The translations under genes were made by a program, and so were the position numbers. The notes under the pieces were generated by a model. The model searched no databases and was not told the origin of the DNA. It saw nothing but the letters and a program-made list of their open reading frames with translations. A stretch of DNA of 24,000 nt. Origin: Acidobacteriota bacterium. Lineage in GTDB: Bacteria; Acidobacteriota; Terriglobia; Acidiferrales; UBA7541. The stretch is from NCBI GenBank assembly GCA_003225295.1, contig QHYZ01000047.1, forward strand, positions 134,213-158,212, given 5' to 3'. This document shows, in pieces, positions 1,339 to 9,445 of the stretch. Each line of letters opens with the position of its first letter. Positions within the stretch are counted from its first letter, which is position 1.

Positions 1339-1371
1339 AAAAAAAGGCGCAGTGAGTTTCCCCGCTGCGCT
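1339..1371 (-). terminator. Intrinsic terminator for the rsr operon, possibly bidirectional with convergent rho
   Basis: Stem GCGCAG (1347-1352) pairs with CTGCGC (1365-1370), plus flanking G.U pairs. On the plus strand it is preceded by A7 (1339-1345), so the minus strand reads hairpin + TTTTTTT. It sits 31 nt after the rsr stop codon and 37 nt after the rho stop codon. Confidence 0.6.
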
Positions 1372-1401
1372 GGTTGAATTGTTCAGTTCCAAGACGAATT
1401 G

Positions 1402-2733
1402 TCAGGCCGCTGCTTGCGCTTCCACTGCGGCGATGAAATCGACGATTCGCTCCGACCAACCGTCAACGTGCGTCCAGCCGTTGCCGTAGCTGATGCCGTG
1501 TTTGTACGGGGCCACGTTCACCGCGTACGCGCGCGGCGCCCACGCTTGCAGGATGCCGTGGTGCGACTGCTCGTCGGTAATTACGATCAGCCGATCGAGT
1601 TCGCGCCACGCCGCCTTGTCGTGGAGCTGCGTCAGCGCGCGCTTGAGGTAGGTTCCCGAGTGCGCCTGCGAGCCCACCATGGCATCGCGCAACGCGAAGC
1701 CCCGTTGCGGAGGCAATTCGATGCAAGTGTCGGAGAAGGTCGCGATGGAGAACTCCTCGGCCTTCTCGCGAAGCAGAATCGCCAGCCCTGCCGCCGCGTC
1801 CATGCGCGTGGTCTGGCCCTTTTTCGACAGCTTGTAGTTCATCGAGCCGGACACGTCCACGACAAGCCCGGTCGACCCCGCAAGCTTCGCGATTCCGGCG
1901 ATGCTCTTGAGCATGGCCTTTTCGAGAGCGCCCTCGAGCCTGGGTGCGTGGCGTGCCGCCGTCACGAAGTGCAACGGCAGCGCTCGCGCGACGCCCTGGT
2001 CCAGCCGCTCGCGCACGAGCTTGGGATCGACGCCCGATGCCAGCATCAAGCGGAGGTTTCGCAGGACGGCCATGCCGCCGAGCTTCCCTTCGCGCAGCAG
2101 TCTCTCAAAGTTCTCGCGCTTGTCCTTCCCTGTGGACAAGGCAACCTCCCAGGTATCGGGAGGTTCGAGCGTGTTCTCAACGAGCTTCTTCCAGAGCGCG
2201 GCCTGCGCTTGGTCCTTGGGCTTCGCGTGGCAGAGGACCAGCACGTCGCGGAGCTTCACCGCCGATTCGCGGTCGTACTTCGCAAGCTGGTAGGCGTCGA
2301 ACTTCGTGAACGCTCGTGCCAGACCGCGCTTTACGCCCGCGGAGAGTGGCTGCTTCTTTTCCTTCCAGTAGAGGGCCACAAACTCGCCGAGTTCATCGGC
2401 CCGCTGGATGACGTCCTCGAGCGTTTCGGCCACGAGTCGGCCGGTGCCCTTGCGGCGCGCGAGTTCACGCGTGAGTAAGAGCGGCGCGTGACGAAGCTGC
2501 ATCTTGCTGCGTGCTTCCCGCGCGAGGGCGGCCACGACTTCTGGCGTGTTCTCGGCGGCAAGCGCGGCGATCTGCTTGGCGATGTCGTTGCCCTTCTCGT
2601 AGAAGGTGTCTTCCCAGAGCAGGCATGTGAGCACGGTGCGCCGTAGCTCGCTTTTCGCGTCCACCTTCTGCGCCACTGCTCCTTCATGCGTCCGCACCGG
2701 GAACATCGGCTTCCAGACGTTCTTCTTGGCCAT
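1402..2733 (-). CDS. rsr: Ro60-like RNA-binding protein (TROVE domain + C-terminal vWA/MIDAS)
   Basis: 443 aa. Blocks alignable by eye to human Ro60: LTCLLWEDTFYE vs FLCFGSEGGTYY; KLRDVLVLCHAKP vs KDLLRLSHLKP; MAVLRNLRLMLASGV vs LTALLRNLGKMTANSV; ALPLHFVTA vs RIHPFHILIA; GLVVDVSGSMN (MIDAS DxSxS) vs LLAVDVSASMN; LIVITDEQS vs FIVFTDNET. A strong Shine-Dalgarno GGAAAGGAGG lies 7 nt before the ATG. Confidence 0.85.
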   Translation of the reverse strand: MAKKNVWKPMFPVRTHEGAVAQKVDAKSELRRTVLTCLLWEDTFYEKGNDIAKQIAALAAENTPEVVAALAREARSKMQLRHAPLLLTRELARRKGTGRLVAETLEDVIQRADELGEFVALYWKEKKQPLSAGVKRGLARAFTKFDAYQLAKYDRESAVKLRDVLVLCHAKPKDQAQAALWKKLVENTLEPPDTWEVALSTGKDKRENFERLLREGKLGGMAVLRNLRLMLASGVDPKLVRERLDQGVARALPLHFVTAARHAPRLEGALEKAMLKSIAGIAKLAGSTGLVVDVSGSMNYKLSKKGQTTRMDAAAGLAILLREKAEEFSIATFSDTCIELPPQRGFALRDAMVGSQAHSGTYLKRALTQLHDKAAWRELDRLIVITDEQSHHGILQAWAPRAYAVNVAPYKHGISYGNGWTHVDGWSERIVDFIAAVEAQAAA

Positions 2734-2790
2734 TGCTAGTCCTCCTTTCCTGAAGGCTTTGCCCCTTCTCCAAGCGACAGGCCCCGGCCG

Positions 2791-3738
2791 TTAATCGAGA
2801 AACGCTAGAAAACGCATTGCGCTCGAGCGATTCTCGGTGTTCATCAGTACACGGTGCCAGCCAATGAGCGTCACGGTTTCGTGATCGGGATGCGACACCT
2901 TCCCGCGCACGTAAACCGTTGCATCGCGCTTCATGATGCGGAAGCCCCGATTGCGCTCGCTCGCTGGCAACTTCTTGTATTCCGGAGCGGTCAATCCGTT
3001 CGGATATCTCGCTGAGACATAAACGGTGTCTCCGCCGGACCGATAACACTCTTCAGCCCAGTGAGGCTTTCCGCCGTTGCCGCGAGAGAGCGGCTCGTCC
3101 TTGAGAACGAGCAATGGATCCGCTTTTACCGCCGTGGGGACGAAAAACCATTCCCCCTGGCGGATGAAGGCTGAATTCCTCCGCTGGAAGCTCGCTTTCC
3201 GCGATATTCCAAGCAGACCTTCTCGTGTCCGTACTTCCTCTGGCTTCAGCGCGATCTTTGCGCTCGCGACGGTGGTTACTGGTTCATTTTCTGGAATTGC
3301 CGCTACGAACCAGTGCCTTTCGTCATGACCGCAGAGAAACTTCTGCTTGGCCAAAAACCGCCCCTGCTCGTCGAACTGGCGGCTGAGCAGCAGCAAATGC
3401 TTTTCCCTTGGCTGGACGTTCAGAACGACGACTTCCTGCAAGCCGCCTGGAGCGGTTCGGATCTCGAAGAATTCGCCAATTTTGTCTCGACGAATATCGA
3501 GAACCATGCGCGGGGCTTCCTCCCGAGACCCAGCCAGGTTCCCACGACCAGCTGCAGGCACGTCCTCGAAAACCTTCACGCGTACGCCCATCCGAGAAAA
3601 ATATCGGTTCAAATCACTGCCCACTGCTTTTTCCTTTCTAAAGACTGCCCGTGGCAGTCGGAATGTGTTCACCGCTCGGAGTCTTGCTCCGAACCGTTCA
3701 AAAACAGACGAGTTGACGCCACAAGATTCTTGCCCCAC
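2791..3738 (-). CDS. Uncharacterised protein; no domain recognised
   Basis: 315-aa ORF ending 57 nt upstream of rsr on the same strand. Its composition is plausible for a protein, unlike the antisense shadow ORFs. Recurrent His/acidic motifs: CGHDERHWFVAAIP, RQGEWFFVP, GGKPHWAEE, SHPDHETVTLIGWHRV. The start is a GTG at 3738, 12 nt after AAGGAG (3751-3756), so the start is uncertain. The next in-frame Met (3591) has no Shine-Dalgarno sequence. Confidence 0.6.
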   Translation of the reverse strand: MGQESCGVNSSVFERFGARLRAVNTFRLPRAVFRKEKAVGSDLNRYFSRMGVRVKVFEDVPAAGRGNLAGSREEAPRMVLDIRRDKIGEFFEIRTAPGGLQEVVVLNVQPREKHLLLLSRQFDEQGRFLAKQKFLCGHDERHWFVAAIPENEPVTTVASAKIALKPEEVRTREGLLGISRKASFQRRNSAFIRQGEWFFVPTAVKADPLLVLKDEPLSRGNGGKPHWAEECYRSGGDTVYVSARYPNGLTAPEYKKLPASERNRGFRIMKRDATVYVRGKVSHPDHETVTLIGWHRVLMNTENRSSAMRFLAFLD

Positions 3739-3767
3739 TTCATTTCTTTTCTCCTTGACCGTAACCG

Positions 3768-3901
3768 AAAAAACTCCGGACGGGAACCCCTAGCCAGGGA
3801 ACATTAGCCGCTCTATCCATTGAGCTACTGGCCCGTATCAGCCAGGTGGGAATCGAACCCGTAACCGCCCGCTCTTGAGCCGAAGTAAGCCCGTCCTGAA
3901 C
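3768..3901 (-). ncRNA. Candidate YrlA-type Y RNA (permuted tRNA-like module A)
   Basis: The minus strand reads GGG-TTCGATT-CCC (3860-3848, T-arm-like). Next comes CTGGC-tgatacgg-GCCAG (3845-3828, a loop-capped acceptor-like stem). Then TA (U8/A9 equivalents) and GCTC-AATGGATA-GAGC (3825-3810, a D-arm with A14, G18G19 and A21 equivalents). The module is enclosed by GGACGGG (3896-3890) pairing with CCCGTCC (3784-3778), with 3 further pairs beyond a mismatch. It is followed by GGAG + T6 (3773-3768). It is adjacent to and co-oriented with rsr. The ends are approximate. Confidence 0.55.
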
Positions 3902-4299
3902 CGCGTCCAACTTTGTTGTCTGCGCTCAAAGCATCCGCACAAGCGATTCTTGGTTAGCGTCACCACCGCTGGCGGCGATTTTCCCCAGCCCCGGCGCGAA
4001 CCGCCGACTGTTCCGCGGTTCGCGCCGGCCAAATTCGAGCCGGGAGGAATAATCGAGCAGAGCTGCGGAGCGGCAGCTCCGCATCGCTTAACCACGAAGT
4101 ATCTCTGCGCAGCGCCATCCCGGCAGCTCATCTGGTGGGAACAAGCGGTTCGCGTTTGTCTGAGCCACTGCTTCTTACCAAGCAAACGAGAATTGCACTC
4201 GCGACCTCCCCAGTTCATCGCCGGGGCGCTCGATAGAAGTAACGCTCACCTTCCCGACACCAGAAACTCTCGCGGCAGGAATCGGCGGTCCAGGTATTT

Positions 4300-4370
4300 C
4301 TCCGCTGCTCTATCCGTTGAGCTACGGCAGCTCGCGCCAGCGGCAGGAGTCGAACCCGCAGCCGTCGGAG
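4300..4370 (-). ncRNA. Second permuted tRNA-like module (module B); a Y RNA-like core with undefined transcript ends
   Basis: The minus strand reads CTCCG (4370-4366), acggct, then GCGGG-TTCGACT-CCTGC (4359-4343, a 5-bp T-arm with one G.U). Next is a short capped stem (4342-4325; GGC/GCC plus wobble pairs). Then TA and GCTC-AACGGATA-GAGC (4322-4307), ag, and CGGAG (4304-4300), which pairs back to CTCCG. Together these give a closed four-way junction in the same permuted order as module A. Confidence 0.5.
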
Positions 4371-4815
4371 CCCGATGTAACCCCGGCCTTCACCACGCCG
4401 CAAACTCTTCAAACTTTCCAAGCGCTTCTCTCCTCGTTTACCCGGCCCCGTGACTCCTTCACTAGCGCACACCCGTAGCGTGGCGTTTCGTTCTTCAAGG
4501 ATCCACGGCGTCAAAGAAATCCGGAAGGGATCAGCCCTCACGGTGAAACTGCATTCTTGCCTGAAGAGCACTGCGTACTCCCGAGGCCAGAACCAGCCGT
4601 GAACTTCATCGTCCCTGGACACAAATCCCGAGGCCGATAATCTTAAATCGAAACCACTTAGGCGGCTTGTTTTACAGTCGCGCGAACAAGCAGTCCACGA
4701 GACCTGATCGCCTTGGTGTTATCCCGCATTGGCTCTTGTCTTCGTGTCTCATAATCTGCTCTTCACGCTCAGCAAGGACCTCGGCTAAGCCGAGGCGTAC
4801 GACTGAGGTATCACG

Positions 4816-4844
4816 AAAGTAAACGGATTCGGAAAGTCTGTCAA
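4816..4844 (-). promoter_or_regulatory. Possible sigma70-type promoter reading toward the RNA modules
   Basis: On the minus strand: TTGACA (4844-4839), a 17-nt spacer, then TACTTT (4821-4816). An A/T-rich tract (ttttcaaaaatag) lies immediately upstream. It sits in the only visibly AT-rich patch of the window. Called from sequence pattern only. Confidence 0.2.
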
Positions 4845-4937
4845 GAACTATTTTTGAAAAGCAGCGTTTTTGGCCCATTTTTGCGGTGCTTGTTAATTTC
4901 AAAGTACTTATAGGCCGCCCGACCCACGCCGCGGTCT

Positions 4938-6203
4938 TCATTCGTACCGCAGGCAAACGATGGGGTCAAGGTTAGCAGCTAGATTCGCCGGATAGTATCC
5001 GAAGAACAGTCCCACACCGACGGAGATGGCAAACCCAATGGAGACCCACAGATAGGACAATGTCGCGGGAATTGAAGGCACGAGTGTACGCACCAGAATG
5101 GACACGCCTGCCCCGATCAGAATGCCGATCGAGCCGCCGACCAGGGTGAGCACCACGGCTTCCAGCAAAAATTGTAGGCGGACATCCGCGCGGCGCGCGC
5201 CGATGGCTTTGCGCACGCCAATTTCCTGGGTGCGCTCGGTCACGGAGATGAGCATGATATTCATTACGCCGATGCCGCCCACGAGCAGCCCGATCGAACT
5301 GATGACCGTAGTGAGAATGACCAGCGCGCCAGTGAGCTGGTTCCAAAGATTGCTGAGGAAATCCGGTGAGCTCAACTCGAAATCATTTTCCTGTCCCGCA
5401 GGGATACGGCGGAGACGGCGCAACGTCTGAATAACTTCGCCGTGCGCGGTTTCGACGTTGACGTTCTCCGGAACAGTGAATGCCATAATCAATTCTTTGG
5501 CTTCCGGGTACTGTTTCTTGAAGTTGCTGAGCGGGATGACCACAAAGATGTCCACGCCCGGGCCGAGGAACAAGCCCTGGTCATGCTCGAATACGCCGAT
5601 CACTTCGTAAGCGGCGCCATTGACGCGCACAGTCTTCCCCAGGGCGTCCGTGTTGGGGAACAGCGATTCGCTGATGGCCGCGCCCAGCACAACGACGGGC
5701 CGCGCATGCTCCTGATCGAAGGCGCTGATGAAACGGCCGCGCTCGATGCTGAACAACGGAATCGCCTCGGTGTACTCCGGCTCCGCGCCGCGTATGACAA
5801 CCTTCTCGACACTGCGGTCACCGCTGATAATGCGATTGCTGTCACCGAAGAAGAAGCCCCGCGTGCCAAACGTCGTGACGATATGCACGTCGGGTGCAGC
5901 ATTTCGGACAAACTCGGCGTAATTGTATTCAAGATACTTGCGCGTTCGAATCCGTTCTGGCAAGCGGGATGGGTCGGTGCCGAACGGGAATCGTGAAATA
6001 AAATAAGTGCGCGACCCCAGCCGCTCCACCCGGTCCTGCACAAACTTGTTCAGACCTTGAATGATGGCCGCCATGGAAATCACCGAAGATACACCGATGA
6101 CGATACCCAGCACGGTCAAGGCGGAGCGCACCTTGGACGAGCGCAACGTCTCCAGTGCGGCAAACAGATTCTCCCGCGTTTGCGCAAGCGTCATAATGGC
6201 CAT
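4938..6203 (-). CDS. ABC transporter permease, MacB-like periplasmic core + FtsX domain
   Basis: The track ORF (4938..6608) is over-extended by 135 junk codons that overlap the upstream gene. The real start is the ATG at 6203-6201 (MAIMTLAQTRENLFAALETLRSSKVRSALTVLGIVIGVSS...). It overlaps the upstream stop as TAATG. The C-terminal FtsX helices include TERTQEIGVRKAIGARRADV. Confidence 0.85.
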   Translation of the reverse strand: MAIMTLAQTRENLFAALETLRSSKVRSALTVLGIVIGVSSVISMAAIIQGLNKFVQDRVERLGSRTYFISRFPFGTDPSRLPERIRTRKYLEYNYAEFVRNAAPDVHIVTTFGTRGFFFGDSNRIISGDRSVEKVVIRGAEPEYTEAIPLFSIERGRFISAFDQEHARPVVVLGAAISESLFPNTDALGKTVRVNGAAYEVIGVFEHDQGLFLGPGVDIFVVIPLSNFKKQYPEAKELIMAFTVPENVNVETAHGEVIQTLRRLRRIPAGQENDFELSSPDFLSNLWNQLTGALVILTTVISSIGLLVGGIGVMNIMLISVTERTQEIGVRKAIGARRADVRLQFLLEAVVLTLVGGSIGILIGAGVSILVRTLVPSIPATLSYLWVSIGFAISVGVGLFFGYYPANLAANLDPIVCLRYE

Positions 6204-7423
6204 TAGTCGGACCTCAAAGCCACAATCGGGTCCAGCTGTGACGCGCGCACTGCCGGATATATTCCGAAAAACAATCCGACTGCGGAGCTCAGCAGTACTC
6301 CTAGCACCGCGACCCACGTTTGCACCGCCGCTGGGAACGGCGTATACGTGCGCAGTGCCAGCGCCACCAGAAATCCGAGAGAGATGCCCAGAGCGCCGCC
6401 GGCGATACATTGCATGACGCTTTCGGCCATGAACTGCCGCAGAATGTCGCTCTTCGTCGCACCCACTGCGCGGCGCACGCCGATTTCCCGTCGCCGCAAG
6501 TTCACACTTACCAGCATCACGTTCATGATGACGATTCCGCCGATGACCACTGAGATCGCGCTCACCAGAATGAAAACGCCGAAAAACGCCGAGCTGATGC
6601 TGCGCCACAAGGCCATGTAGCTTTCTTTCGTGCCGATGAAGAAATCATCTTCCATCTTGCCACTGAGGTGACGTCGCGCCCGCAGGACCAGGTCGGCCTG
6701 ATCCTGTGCCTTTTCAAAATCACCGGTGTTTGTCCTGACGTTGATCGTGAGGCTGGTGTGCACACCTTGCATGCGCAGAAATACCGGCAGGGGGACAATG
6801 ATGAAATTGTCCTGGTCCTGCCCCAGAACACTGCCGATCTTCTCGATGACCCCAATTACCACGAGTTCGTCATTACCGACACGAAGGTTCTTCCCGATGG
6901 GGTCCATGCCGAGAAACAGCTGCTGCACCAGTGTGTCGCCGATCAAGCAAACATCAGTGTGGTGCTCGGCTTCTGCGGCCGTGAAGTAGCGGCCAAATTC
7001 CACAGTGCGCGTATCAATGTCGGCCATGTTTGGCGTTTGCCCATAGAAATTCACATCGGTCACCTCTTTGTTGGCGTATCTTGCGTGCGCGCTTCCGCTG
7101 GCCGTGGCGCCAACCTCCTGGCAAGCGGGACAGCCTTCTGCAACCGCGCGCATGTCCTCGAGCTCAATCTTCTTGAACTTCAGCGCCTTGATAATGATGT
7201 TGAAATCGGTCACCGCGAAGGGAGTGCGCGCGATTTGAAAGACGTTTGTGCCCAGGTTGGCGATCTTTTGCTCGACGTAGACGTTTGCGCCCTGCACGAT
7301 GGTCATGACCGTGATGAGTGTGGCCACACCCATCGTCAGCCCCAGCATGGTGAGCGAGGCGCGCAGTTTGTGCGTGCGCAGGGCACTCAAGCATTGCCCG
7401 AGATTGTCACGGAGAGCGAGCAT
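6203..7423 (-). CDS. ABC transporter permease, MacB-like periplasmic core + FtsX domain
   Basis: 406 aa. It has an N-terminal TM helix (LRASLTMLGLTMGVATLITVMTIV), a large periplasmic domain, and a C-terminal FtsX region (RRREIGVRRAVGATKSDIL...). It is a paralogue of the downstream gene. Confidence 0.85.
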   Translation of the reverse strand: MLALRDNLGQCLSALRTHKLRASLTMLGLTMGVATLITVMTIVQGANVYVEQKIANLGTNVFQIARTPFAVTDFNIIIKALKFKKIELEDMRAVAEGCPACQEVGATASGSAHARYANKEVTDVNFYGQTPNMADIDTRTVEFGRYFTAAEAEHHTDVCLIGDTLVQQLFLGMDPIGKNLRVGNDELVVIGVIEKIGSVLGQDQDNFIIVPLPVFLRMQGVHTSLTINVRTNTGDFEKAQDQADLVLRARRHLSGKMEDDFFIGTKESYMALWRSISSAFFGVFILVSAISVVIGGIVIMNVMLVSVNLRRREIGVRRAVGATKSDILRQFMAESVMQCIAGGALGISLGFLVALALRTYTPFPAAVQTWVAVLGVLLSSAVGLFFGIYPAVRASQLDPIVALRSD

Positions 7424-7621: not shown

Positions 7622-9445
7622 CTAATGGCCCACCTGCTCGTCCATCCAGCGCTTGATACGCGCTTCCAAGACACTCAGGGGCACCGCGCCTTCTTCAAGC
7701 ACCGCATCATGAAATTTGCGCACCTCGAATCTTTCGCCCAGTTTCTTCTGGGCTTCCGAGCGCAACTCGCGAATCTTCATCTGCCCGATCTTGTACGCGA
7801 GCGCCTGCCCCGGCCACACGATGTAGCGATCGACTTCGACGGTGATGTCCTGATCGGTCTTTCCGGTATGCTCGCGGAAGAAATCAATGGCCTGCTGCCG
7901 GGTCCAGCCCATGGAATGCATCCCGGTATCCACCACGAGCCTTACCGCGCGCCACATTTCGTAGCCCAGCTGCCCGAATTTCGAATACGCATCTTTGTAC
8001 ATGCCCAGCTCTTCGCCGAGGCTCTCCGAATACAATGCCCAGCCCTCGACAAACGCGGAGTAGCCGAGGTGTTTTCGAAATTCAGGTACGTTTTCCATCT
8101 CCTGCCCGAGCGAAAGCTGAAGATGATGCCCGGGCACCGCCTCATGCAGCGAGAGCGCCTCCATTTCCCACTTTGGTCGCGCGTGAAGGTTGAAGGTGTT
8201 GACGAAATAGCAGCCTGGCCGCCCGGCACTCGGTGCACCCGGTTGATAATACGCCGTTGTCTGTGAAGGCGCTTTGAACTCCGGAATCACGCATACGCCG
8301 TAAGGAAGCCGAGGCAGCTTGCCGAAGAGATGCGCGAGTTCTGGGTCGATCTTTTTTGTGATAATGCGGTAACCGTTCACCAGATCATCCGCCCGGTCAT
8401 AATAGAAGCGCTGATCCGTGCGCAGAACTTCCGTGAAATCGTGGAAGCTGCCCTGGAATCCCGCCGAGGCAATGACCTTGTCCATCCCCACGCGGATACG
8501 TTTTACTTCGGAAAGTCCGATCTCGTGAATCTGTTGCGGCGTCAAGTTCGTGGTGGTCTGCCAGCGCACATGAAACGCGTAAGCTGCGGCGCCGTTGGGC
8601 AGCGCCGTTGCCGCGATCGATTCACGGCAGGCCGGCAGGTACGTCGAAGTCACGTAGTCGTGTAGTTTCTGAAACGCCGGAGCAACGGCGCTGGCGTAAA
8701 GCTTCTTGGCGCGATCGGTAAGCCGGATGCGCTCCACTTCGGGAAATCCCGCGGGGAATTCCTTGAACGGCTCCAGCGGCGGGCTAGCCAGCGGATCGGC
8801 GGGAATCAGACCAGCGATTTGTTTCGGAACATCGCGCAGCATCAACTTCGGCGGCGTATAGCCTTTGTTCAAACCCTCCTGAAGAAACAAACGATTCTGT
8901 TCAATGCTGCCCGGCAGCGCTGCGAGCCGCGCAAGAATATCCTCGTAATCCGCGACCGTTTGGCGCGGCATCGCCGCGATTATTTCTGCCGCACCCTGCT
9001 GGATTCCACCCATCTGCGTTATGGGCATCCAAGAGTTACTCGGGACAACATCACGGAATGGGATAGGATCGTCGCCGTACTGCAAGCCCTCTTCCGCCGT
9101 TTCCAGAAGCTCCCGGTAAAGGTCGTAGTTGAATTGTTCCTCGGCCGGGAGTCGATCGCGCGGAATGGAATCGAGCTTCGTGAGACTCTCGTGGAGGTGG
9201 CGGATTCTCGCTTGCAGGCCCTCTCGCGAATCGTCGCGCCACCGGCGGTTCTGCCCGGGAAACCCAACGAGAGTCGCGGTTTCGGGATATTCCCGCATCC
9301 AGCGTTTCCAATCTTCATGGAGATAAGCGCGGAATTTTCGGCTTGCTTCCGCTGAGCTGGAACTGGTTTGTGCCATCGTCAGCAAGGGCATCACCAGCAG
9401 CGCGCTGCCTGCGGAAAATGCCAGCATCAATGATGTTCGAATCAC
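7622..9445 (-). CDS. DUF885 family secreted protein
   Basis: 607 aa with an N-terminal signal-like segment (LMLAFSAGSALLVMPLLTMAQ) and the family-typical HEAVPGHHLQ motif. The GTG start overlaps the cmk stop as GTGA. Confidence 0.8.
   Translation of the reverse strand: MIRTSLMLAFSAGSALLVMPLLTMAQTSSSSAEASRKFRAYLHEDWKRWMREYPETATLVGFPGQNRRWRDDSREGLQARIRHLHESLTKLDSIPRDRLPAEEQFNYDLYRELLETAEEGLQYGDDPIPFRDVVPSNSWMPITQMGGIQQGAAEIIAAMPRQTVADYEDILARLAALPGSIEQNRLFLQEGLNKGYTPPKLMLRDVPKQIAGLIPADPLASPPLEPFKEFPAGFPEVERIRLTDRAKKLYASAVAPAFQKLHDYVTSTYLPACRESIAATALPNGAAAYAFHVRWQTTTNLTPQQIHEIGLSEVKRIRVGMDKVIASAGFQGSFHDFTEVLRTDQRFYYDRADDLVNGYRIITKKIDPELAHLFGKLPRLPYGVCVIPEFKAPSQTTAYYQPGAPSAGRPGCYFVNTFNLHARPKWEMEALSLHEAVPGHHLQLSLGQEMENVPEFRKHLGYSAFVEGWALYSESLGEELGMYKDAYSKFGQLGYEMWRAVRLVVDTGMHSMGWTRQQAIDFFREHTGKTDQDITVEVDRYIVWPGQALAYKIGQMKIRELRSEAQKKLGERFEVRKFHDAVLEEGAVPLSVLEARIKRWMDEQVGH

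Follow-up and report, generated by a model that had tools for sequence, protein, structure and literature searches.

Salmonella Typhimurium carries an rsr-yrlBA-rtcBA operon under the control of RtcR and sigma-54 (PMC7790460; PMC4201824). RNAs of its YrlA class have near-invariant T and D stem-loops around a sequence-variable acceptor-like (AS) stem-loop, with a closing stem outside; a position on the same strand within 4 kb of a Ro60 orthologue has served as a criterion for them (PMC4201824). The interactor of the YrlA tRNA-like module was stated to be unknown (Chen et al., PMC4201824). A Ro60/YrlA module is known from a mycobacteriophage (PMC4201824), and phiRo60 of the Thermus phage phiLo forms a canonical ring, binds two phage-encoded Y-like RNAs (Yrl1/Yrl2) and engages the host PNPase (PMC12135203). 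In the Rsr-Yrn1-PNPase complex of Deinococcus radiodurans (RYPER), the Y RNA tethers the Ro60 ring to the effector through its non-Ro-binding module (PMC4201824, PMC7790460). Long tRNA arrays are also of interest here; they are spread by horizontal transfer, and RtcB and HNH genes are overrepresented around them (PMC8421152). We analysed a related locus in a 24,000-nt stretch of a contig from a soil bacterium of the Acidobacteriota (QHYZ01000047.1; the whole stretch is called the window below). All its features lie on the minus strand between positions 4913 and 1339, and comprise an array of five Y-RNA-like units, a gene for an unannotated protein, here called UNK, and a gene for a compact Ro60 homologue with TROVE and vWA domains (the TROVE gene).

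A Ro60-Y RNA locus as such is known. What is new is the presence of UNK, the array with its five units and the occurrence of a compact Ro60 of phage type in an operon on the chromosome. We read the operon as a phage-type Ro60-Y RNA module with UNK as a third conserved component, acting in RNA surveillance or repair, and give this reading a probability of about 0.6. A first-pass annotation, made from the sequence alone, had assigned the locus to the Ro60-Y RNA type and had seen its partner position occupied by a protein that could not be recognised, and our analysis agrees, with the partner position found to be conserved. The anatomy of the locus, its conservation, the covariation in its RNAs and its gene linkages are demonstrated observations. 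The main components of the operon are as follows.

4512 to 4620 (approximate), minus strand: Y-like unit E (alignment A6 and consensus fold)
4262 to 4400, minus strand: Y RNA unit B (module B), full tRNA-like domain (130 bits with our covariance model R1; 27.3 bits with Rfam YrlA)
4123 to 4261, minus strand: Y-like unit C (R1 16 bits, E-value 0.023)
4030 to 4122, minus strand: Y-like unit D, stem-only with one small hairpin, comparable to YrlB (R1 22.3 bits, E-value 8e-4)
3767 to 3908, minus strand: Y RNA unit A (module A), full tRNA-like domain with a U6 end (R1 59.8 bits; Rfam YrlA 33.5 bits)
2791 to 3624, minus strand: UNK, 277 amino acids (aa), basic, of an unannotated family (homologues and alignment of start codons)
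1402 to 2733, minus strand: compact Ro60 homologue, TROVE ring and vWA domain with DxSxS, 443 aa (Pfam and alignment to phiLo Ro60)

Like the Salmonella operon, the window has a Ro60 homologue with adjacent same-strand Y RNAs, which include a tRNA-like class (YrlA) and a stem-only class (YrlB-like, unit D). In the related loci of the Terriglobales, the block of UNK, Y RNAs and TROVE directly follows rtcB-rtcA, with a divergent rtcR. Unlike Salmonella, the window lacks rtcB, rtcA, rtcR and a sigma-54 promoter, its RNAs come first and its proteins after them, it has five units instead of two, and UNK is an extra protein. The window RNAs stay under the YrlA gathering score, and the 443-aa Ro60 does not reach the NCBIfam Rsr equivalog NF041674 (RNA-bind_Rsr), with 27.7 bits against a cutoff of 900.

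The likeness to the phage modules is seen in the Ro60 protein, which is closest to that of phiLo, in a Y RNA family immediately upstream on the same strand, and in the multiple Y-like RNAs per locus. Unlike the phage modules, the locus sits in the chromosome, flanked by rho on one side and permease genes on the other, and has been kept throughout an acidobacterial order; moreover, its array has grown to five units and UNK is inserted between the RNAs and TROVE. By analogy, RYPER may serve as a working model for the window. In Deinococcus, however, PNPase is encoded elsewhere in the genome and Yrn1 has a different tRNA-like arrangement, whereas the candidate effector of the window lies inside the operon. 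As in the tRNA-array systems, UNK homologues occur in same-strand tRNA arrays beside RtcB, RlaP, Band-7 and HNH genes, and a 31-tRNA array stands behind a Terriglobales rtcBA-UNK-Y-TROVE locus. In Anabaena, a hypothetical protein, all4315, is linked to such an array. Unlike these systems, the window has no tRNA genes, and its tRNA-like Y array takes the place that real tRNA arrays hold around UNK elsewhere.

The Y-RNA-like array and the compact Ro60 protein

The five units stand head-to-tail, and units B, C, D and A were detected with filters off, as abutting units, by R1, a covariance model that we built from module B. We aligned modules A and B with the corresponding stretches of 11 related loci, and each had the T arm GGGUUCGAxUCCC and the invariant D arm GUAGCUCAAUGGAUAGAGC; compensatory changes occurred in the T arm and also in the acceptor-like hairpin. 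Unit B consists of a closing stem, a T arm, an acceptor-like hairpin and a D arm, and the structure of unit A is supported by alignment A2 and by its fold. The architecture described for YrlA (T and D stem-loops, a variable acceptor-like hairpin between them and a closing stem) is present in both, and the units sit 1.0–1.9 kb upstream of TROVE on the minus strand, which is within the published distance of 4 kb on the same strand. The two tRNA-like modules of the first-pass annotation were thus recovered, at 3767–3908 and 4262–4400, by both the YrlA matches and R1.

The other three units are less complete. Unit C retains a closing stem, a V-like hairpin, a T arm with a mutated loop, an acceptor-like hairpin and a truncated D arm, and it aligns convincingly to intact units of the related loci L003, L005, L006, L007 and L011. 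Unit D is strongly conserved and its internal hairpin covaries. In unit E of the window both stems are kept, but the T-arm-like hairpin of its relatives has decayed; these relatives scored 28–44 bits with R1, while the R1 search did not detect the window copy. All units share the 5' sequence UGGUGAAG..GUUACUUC and the 3' sequence GAUUCC, which flank the closing stem. A 5' motif, GNCGAAN0-1G, was proposed for Rsr recognition, and the 5' motifs of the window are similar to it, not identical. Units B and E have GGUGAAG (U for C) and unit D has GGCGCUG, whereas the sequence of unit A is GGUUCAG in the window but GGUGUAG in its relatives. Further hallmarks of YrlA are binding by the Ro60 orthologue and modification by TruB and DusA.

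Applied to 80 related loci, R1 found 77 units, and the acidobacterial loci carried 3–6 of them head-to-tail. In the alignment of these 77 units, pairing was observed in 96.7% of cells compared with 38–45% for slid partners, and compensatory changes occurred at 24 of the 29 pairs, although these pairing figures are somewhat inflated by the fitting of the alignment to R1. The RNA modules are far beyond chance. The placement of the units relative to the genes differs between groups, upstream of UNK in the Acidoferrum-like group and between UNK and TROVE in the Terriglobales. As a separate observation, L011 contains an insert of about 400 nt in its Y-RNA array which encodes a small open reading frame (ORF; 5343–5621, plus strand), and similar inserts are present in L009 and L007. 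By eye, the L011 ORF may resemble an AbrB/MazE-type swapped-hairpin protein (...FLKIVIPGWLAEILEVEEGDFLRVSN...).

At its curated thresholds Rfam gave no known RNA in the window, the gathering score of YrlA (RF02553) being 69 bits, and ARAGORN gave no tRNA in the window. In E-value mode, full-length YrlA alignments were obtained at 3780–3893 (33.5 bits, E-value 4e-5) and 4273–4386 (27.3 bits, E-value 0.0025), and these were the only meaningful Rfam matches in the window in that mode. The YrlA scores of related units elsewhere were 63.6 bits (L058), 41.5 bits (L034) and 37.3 bits (L065).

The Ro60 protein of the window matched Pfam TROVE (PF05731) with 52.8 bits against a cutoff of 23 (E-value 5e-14), and vWA_Ro60 with 26.8 bits, which is just below the cutoff of 27.7. 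Its metal-ion-dependent adhesion site motif DxSxS is present, as VVDVSGSM aligns to the vWA domain of phiRo60. Among proteins of solved structure, phiLo Ro60 (9L5Y/9KOP) is the nearest relative and was matched over the full length (residues 13–439) with an E-value of 8e-28, while a canonical Ro60 structure (9NEN) gave an E-value of 0.007 only. The PHROGs family phrog_850 matched with an E-value of 3e-47, and source databases label the protein as TROVE or 60 kDa SS-A/Ro. Judged by these matches, the window Ro60 belongs to a compact, phage-like clade, and the full-length alignment to a solved ring suggests a closed ring that would bind the Y RNA stem and misfolded RNA.

The TROVE protein has 314 relatives in IMG/VR, of which 80 loci served as our viral test set. 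In about 70 of these 80, R1 detected one to three Y-like units directly upstream on the same strand. The pair of Ro60 and Y RNA is therefore an already-known type, and the Rfam YrlA model sees its RNA subfamily weakly. One viral contig, L164 (4246–7329), carries RtcB, a Y-like RNA (5597–5733), compact TROVE and 32 tRNA genes, and has no UNK.

UNK, its family and its gene neighbours

The first-pass annotation had given the second ORF 315 aa and had assigned AAGGAG at 3756 to it as the ribosome-binding site. The ORF is present and ends at 2791, but its length is 277 aa. Its start was placed at GTG 3624, with its own Shine-Dalgarno sequence AAAGGA, for three reasons. Most UNK homologues among the matches listed have 265–280 aa; the sequence GAAAGGAAAAAGCA-GTG is invariant, as is the full block GACUGC-loop-GCAGUC-UUAGAAAGGAAAAAGCA-GTG in nine loci; and a 1-nt indel just upstream of GTG 3624 breaks the longer frame except in the window and its closest relative. 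The indel and the invariant block rule out the 315-aa version. AAGGAG serves instead a 24-codon upstream open reading frame (uORF) that begins at ATG 3743.

The UNK family is large, with more than 5,500 proteins in one search and 2,242 clusters at 50% identity, and the members named by a source are all called hypothetical. Neither the single sequence nor a profile found a match in Pfam, NCBIfam, PADLOC, PHROGs or PDB sequences. The AlphaFold2 model is mostly beta (predicted local distance difference test score 79.7, predicted template modelling score 0.70) and gave no significant Foldseek match in PDB or BFVD. The motifs CGHDERHWF, RQGEWFF, KPHW, HPDH and WHRVLMNTE were recognised in UNK. Among 41 diverse members the median isoelectric point was 9.9, and G99, E102, A122, R155, Q156, G157, E158, W159, F161, H188, G241, H248, W256, V259 and E264 were invariant; the polar residues of this set are E102, R155, Q156, E158, H188, H248 and E264. 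Since UNK is basic and has a conserved polar constellation, these sequences suggest a nucleic-acid-binding enzyme.

Several assignments were considered and rejected. The motifs of 2H-phosphoesterases, PD-(D/E)xK nucleases and HxD...H oxygenases misfit by eye, and the beta-rich fold had no supporting match. In the Gemmataceae locus L058, a DUF4058 protein (8140–8928, minus strand) lies immediately downstream of a canonical 539-aa Ro60, and a profile comparison showed no relation between this protein and UNK. UNK as a phage or plasmid gene was also rejected, with no match in 50,697 isolated phage genomes or 72,556 plasmids. In the literature compared, UNK was not reported for the Salmonella operon or the tRNA-array systems; an earlier description (e.g., Burroughs & Aravind 2016) is possible.

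The gene neighbourhoods of UNK were compared in 159 loci, 80 from GTDB and 79 from IMG/VR. Acidobacterial content was present in 21 of the GTDB loci, and TROVE followed UNK in all 20 that reach far enough. Two acidobacterial gene orders were observed, namely Y-array-UNK-TROVE in the Acidoferrales and rtcB-rtcA-UNK-Y-Y-TROVE with a divergent rtcR in the Terriglobales. The other 59 GTDB loci, nearly all planctomycete, had no TROVE within 6 kb save L058 and L034, and a conserved protein neighbour was sought for the planctomycete UNK genes and none was found. In L058 the canonical Ro60, with two YrlA-like RNAs, is 2.2 kb away. The planctomycete locus L034 (1169–2940), in which Ro60 has either decayed or been split, carries three elements after UNK, namely a YrlA-like unit of 71.6 bits, an ORF resembling Ro60 in its C-terminal vWA part alone, and a stem-only Y unit.

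Among the 79 IMG/VR loci, TROVE/Ro60 adjoins UNK in L097, L130, L110 and L152. The UNK copies of these four are only 30–43% identical to that of the window (43% for L097; 30% for L130 in alignment A5, 25% over its best segment), and their GC content is very different. A "Y-like" match in L130 was rejected as a Y RNA, as it probably represents tandem tRNAs. When the neighbours of all 159 loci were clustered, TROVE/Ro60 was the only family common to unrelated backgrounds. None of the 80 phage-type TROVE-Y loci contained UNK. Since UNK is absent from these phage loci and solitary in most planctomycete loci, neither partner needs the other in general. The linkage of UNK to TROVE is thus real but conditional, and UNK is not an obligate Ro60 partner. 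Co-occurrence of the two genes, which the first-pass annotation had offered as a check, held in the acidobacterial loci with both gene orders and in L097, L130, L110, L152, L058 and L034, but it did not prove general. A side observation concerns distant UNK copies (about 27% identity), which have an ARPP-1 domain protein (PF20208) directly upstream in L127 (6937–7983) and also in L112, L114, L115 and L128.

RtcB formed a further neighbour cluster, which spanned genome and viral loci. It lies at most about 1.6 kb from UNK in L091, L086, L060, L064, L065 and L070, and 5–8 kb away in L151, L157 and L161. In L060, L065 and L070, rtcB-rtcA and a divergent rtcR stand before the UNK-Y-TROVE block and a tRNA array of up to 31 genes follows it, so that all three genes of an RtcR-regulated rtcBA operon adjoin the block. 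In the 24-kb window, tblastn found no rtcB, rtcA or rtcR and a motif scan found no sigma-54 -24/-12 element (TGGCAC-N5-TTGCW). The first-pass annotation was right about this absence. Because the sister order has the genes in the same operon, the missing rtc genes are a lineage-specific state and do not define this type of locus.

The viral contigs with UNK contained 414 tRNAs in 1.2 Mb, 403 of them on the UNK strand, and tRNAs flank UNK on both sides, as near as 6–65 nt. In the viral contig L091 the order is Band-7, GNAT, RlaP, UNK, RtcB and HNH. UNK was seen inside same-strand tRNA arrays in L084–L162, for example in L088 (6582–8834), L112 (6647–9973) and L125 (5119–10075). Downstream of the rtcBA-UNK-Y-TROVE genes of the Terriglobales, tRNA arrays occur in L065 (8950–11620 and 12248–12709), L070 (9741–10671) and L064 (5232–5687), and these resemble the horizontally spread L-arrays (PMC8421152). 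The broader association of UNK is therefore with tRNA gene arrays and RtcB. Its recurrent companions (Ro60 with tRNA-mimic Y RNAs, RtcB/RtcA/RtcR, RlaP, Band-7 and tRNA arrays) all handle tRNA or tRNA-shaped RNA.

These neighbourhoods bear on whether UNK belongs to the module at all. UNK might be an unrelated passenger, its adjacency being inherited acidobacterial synteny and the functional module consisting of Ro60 and Y RNAs. The acidobacterial loci are indeed mutually related and share synteny with rho, and the zero count in the 80 phage TROVE-Y loci and the roughly 58 solitary planctomycete UNK genes point in the same direction. However, the adjacency survives the change of gene order between Acidoferrales and Terriglobales, recurs in L097, L130, L110 and L152 at 30–43% UNK identity and differing GC content, and recurs once more with a YrlA-like RNA in the planctomycete L034. 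TROVE is the only cross-lineage neighbour family, and RtcB, RlaP and the tRNA arrays share one functional theme. We consider a passenger unlikely and retain UNK as a probable component of the module.

Operon layout, flanking genes and cis elements

The elements around the main components are listed below.

4863 to 4913, minus strand: AT-rich block upstream of the promoter, with ACTTG-N8-CAAGT-like arms (mostly invariant in 9 loci, alignment A6)
4816 to 4844, minus strand: sigma-70-like promoter, TTGACA (4844–4839), 17 nt, TACTTT (4821–4816) (kept in 8 related loci)
4677 to 4772, minus strand: structured 5' leader element of about 95 nt, then invariant CCGCCUAAGUCGUUUCGAU (about 4665–4645) (alignment of 9 loci)
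3989 to 4030, minus strand: GC-rich hairpin between units D and A, stem of about 15 bp, no U tract (90–94% identity in relatives)
3669 to 3756, minus strand: AAGGAG (3756–3751) and 24-codon uORF, ATG 3743 to stop 3669 (sequence)
3632 to 3659, minus strand: hairpin GACUGC/GCAGUC (3659–3643), then the UNK Shine-Dalgarno sequence AAAGGA (3637–3632) (alignment A8)
1339 to 1370, minus strand: intrinsic terminator GCGCAGCGGG...CUGCGCC, stem 1370–1346 and U7 (1345–1339) (sequence and fold)

According to Pfam, the flanking genes are rho (7–1302) and MacB/FtsX permeases. In 11 loci rho lies downstream of the TROVE gene and convergent with it, and the intrinsic terminator is placed between the two. This rho synteny over 11 genomes suggests long vertical residence, and the locus is stably chromosomal in an Acidoferrum-like acidobacterium. 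No integrase or phage genes were found among the window ORFs checked. As listed, the permease ORFs 4938–6608 and 6203–7423 (both on the minus strand) have about 400 nt in common. In the downstream one, Pfam domains are seen only from residue 162 onwards, so its true start is probably much later than GTG 6608.

The flanks also bear on a possible origin in conflict with phages. The locus could be a domesticated phage counter-defence system, in which Ro60-Y would dampen host PNPase or act as a decoy for tRNA-cleaving nucleases while UNK protects or manipulates the tRNA pool. Such a role is plausible, as phiLo Ro60, the nearest solved relative, attenuates host PNPase, the TROVE protein has its phrog_850 match (E-value 3e-47) and 314 IMG/VR relatives, and viral contigs carry UNK within their tRNA arrays. 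Horizontal spread and neighbourhoods rich in RtcB and HNH genes are known for long tRNA arrays (PMC8421152), and a decoy role for YrlA was proposed earlier (PMC7790460). The core genes on both sides, the lack of an integrase or of phage genes among the ORFs checked, the synteny with rho over 11 genomes and the absence of UNK from 50,697 isolated phage genomes speak against it, and we regard this origin as improbable. The conflict reading and a housekeeping role are not mutually exclusive.

Most parts of the layout given in the first-pass annotation were present where it had placed them, namely the TROVE-vWA gene, the U tract at 3768, the 57-nt gap, the terminator and the core-gene flanks. The promoter it had proposed near 4840 was also confirmed as a sequence, with TTGACA (4844–4839) kept in 8 related loci. 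The corresponding transcription start is predicted at about 4810, and the activity of the promoter is inferred from its sequence. The AT-rich block sits about 20–70 nt upstream of the -35 box and may be a regulator binding site. A consensus scan found no other promoter-like site between the RNA array and the genes.

The leader had been described as 0.9 kb with two modules and a hairpin-rich spacer. We also observed no credible coding sequence in about 1.1 kb upstream of the ORFs, but this region holds five units, a 5' element and a conserved hairpin. For the 5' element, which is located right behind the predicted transcription start, RNAalifold gave 29 pairs, four of them with compensatory changes among the 9 loci, and Rfam gave no match. 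The GC-rich hairpin showed compensatory changes in alignment A9 and may be a processing site. Unit A is closed by the U6 tract at 3773–3768. Between unit A and UNK, the uORF is a candidate reading frame whose start region is kept in only five of nine loci (window, L001, L003, L005 and L007). Its end directly precedes the conserved hairpin that abuts the UNK Shine-Dalgarno sequence, and in alignment A8 this hairpin block is invariant save for one compensatory variant, GGCUGC/GCAGCC in L003. UNK and TROVE are separated by 57 nt (2734–2790), with AAGGAGG upstream of the TROVE ATG at 2733. Given that all features share a strand, that the scan gave no second promoter-like site and that a terminator appears only behind TROVE, a single transcript with partial termination at 3768 is plausible from the sequence.

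This layout also raises the question of whether the upstream 1 kb acts in cis, mainly as an attenuator or sensor leader for UNK and TROVE, and not through trans-acting Y RNAs. The region separates the promoter from the genes, on the strand that they share, and includes a conserved structured element, a U tract behind unit A, a uORF with a strong Shine-Dalgarno sequence and a conserved hairpin abutting the UNK ribosome-binding site. For the Y units a purely cis-acting leader is nevertheless unlikely, since they form modules, range from 3 to 6 copies and shift in position, being placed differently relative to the genes in Terriglobales and phage loci. They also fold independently and share their architecture with RNAs shown to bind Ro60 in other species. 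As an account of the whole region, this is the least probable of the alternatives weighed. The 5' element, the uORF and the hairpin at the ribosome-binding site may act in cis, and such a role could coexist with trans-acting Y RNAs.

Proposed mechanism and significance

On our preferred reading, the operon being a phage-type Ro60-Y RNA module with UNK as third component, the sigma-70-like promoter near 4840 would drive a non-coding precursor of about 1.05 kb. This precursor would contain the structured 5' element followed by the five head-to-tail units, of which A and B are complete, C is partial, D is stem-only and E is decayed. Transcription would pass the U tract at 3768 into UNK and TROVE-vWA and end at the terminator (1370–1339). 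By homology, the Ro60 ring would bind the closing-stem motif of each unit (5' UGGUGAAG..GUUACUUC, 3' GAUUCC). UNK is basic and probably catalytic, and its genomic context suggests that RNAs with a tRNA shape are what it recognises. Together with the Ro60-Y ribonucleoprotein (RNP) it would act in the surveillance and repair of tRNA or structured RNA, either because the tRNA-like domain tethers it, as the Y RNA does PNPase in Deinococcus, or because both have the same damaged tRNAs as targets. In Acidobacteria, a Ro60-Y RNA operon of phage type may have recruited UNK. What we infer from these observations is co-transcription, processing of the RNAs, binding by Ro60 and every activity of UNK.

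Several points weigh against this reading. Three of the five window units are reduced or decayed, and units A and B remain far under the YrlA threshold (33.5 and 27.3 bits against 69 bits). The promoter was missed by the consensus scan, as its -10 hexamer agrees at three of six positions, and the U6 tract after unit A could end most transcripts. Most UNK homologues are not beside TROVE, Y RNA or RtcB (about 58 planctomycete loci, including Singulisphaera), and UNK does not occur in the phage-type TROVE-Y loci (0 of 80). UNK is without a detectable fold or family relative, any catalytic or tRNA-binding role being read from context. Finally, many IMG/VR contigs may be host DNA and not phage, and UNK is absent from isolated phages and plasmids.

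A more specific proposal is that UNK is the partner of the Y RNA tRNA-like domain. It would then be a new-fold enzyme that recognises the tRNA shape and makes up, together with Y RNAs and a Ro60 of phage type, a particle of three parts. Beside RtcB and RlaP, it would also serve genuine tRNAs, namely those of the long arrays that phages and mobile elements carry. We hold this proposal tentatively and consider it less probable than the general reading, although more probable than any of the alternatives above. Because the interactor of the tRNA-like module was reported as unknown (PMC4201824), UNK is put forward as a testable nomination and not as a finding.

For the RNAs, these results mean that the YrlA model of Rfam is not sensitive enough for a large Y-RNA subfamily found in phages and Acidobacteria, and that Y RNA genes can grow into arrays of 3–6 units, apparently within one precursor. 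For the protein, the locus and its relatives nominate a very widespread unannotated family (2,242 clusters at 50% identity) without recognisable fold as a candidate for testing, and the genes that recur beside this family are limited to Ro60 with Y RNAs, RtcB/RtcA/RlaP and tRNA arrays. Should UNK bind or process tRNA-shaped RNA, Ro60-Y RNPs would be mechanistically joined to tRNA repair, a recurrent gene of the tRNA arrays of phages and mobile elements would be explained, and RNA-repair systems would gain a component. If UNK is the partner of the tRNA-like domain, the acidobacterial operon would be the clearest natural version of the system.

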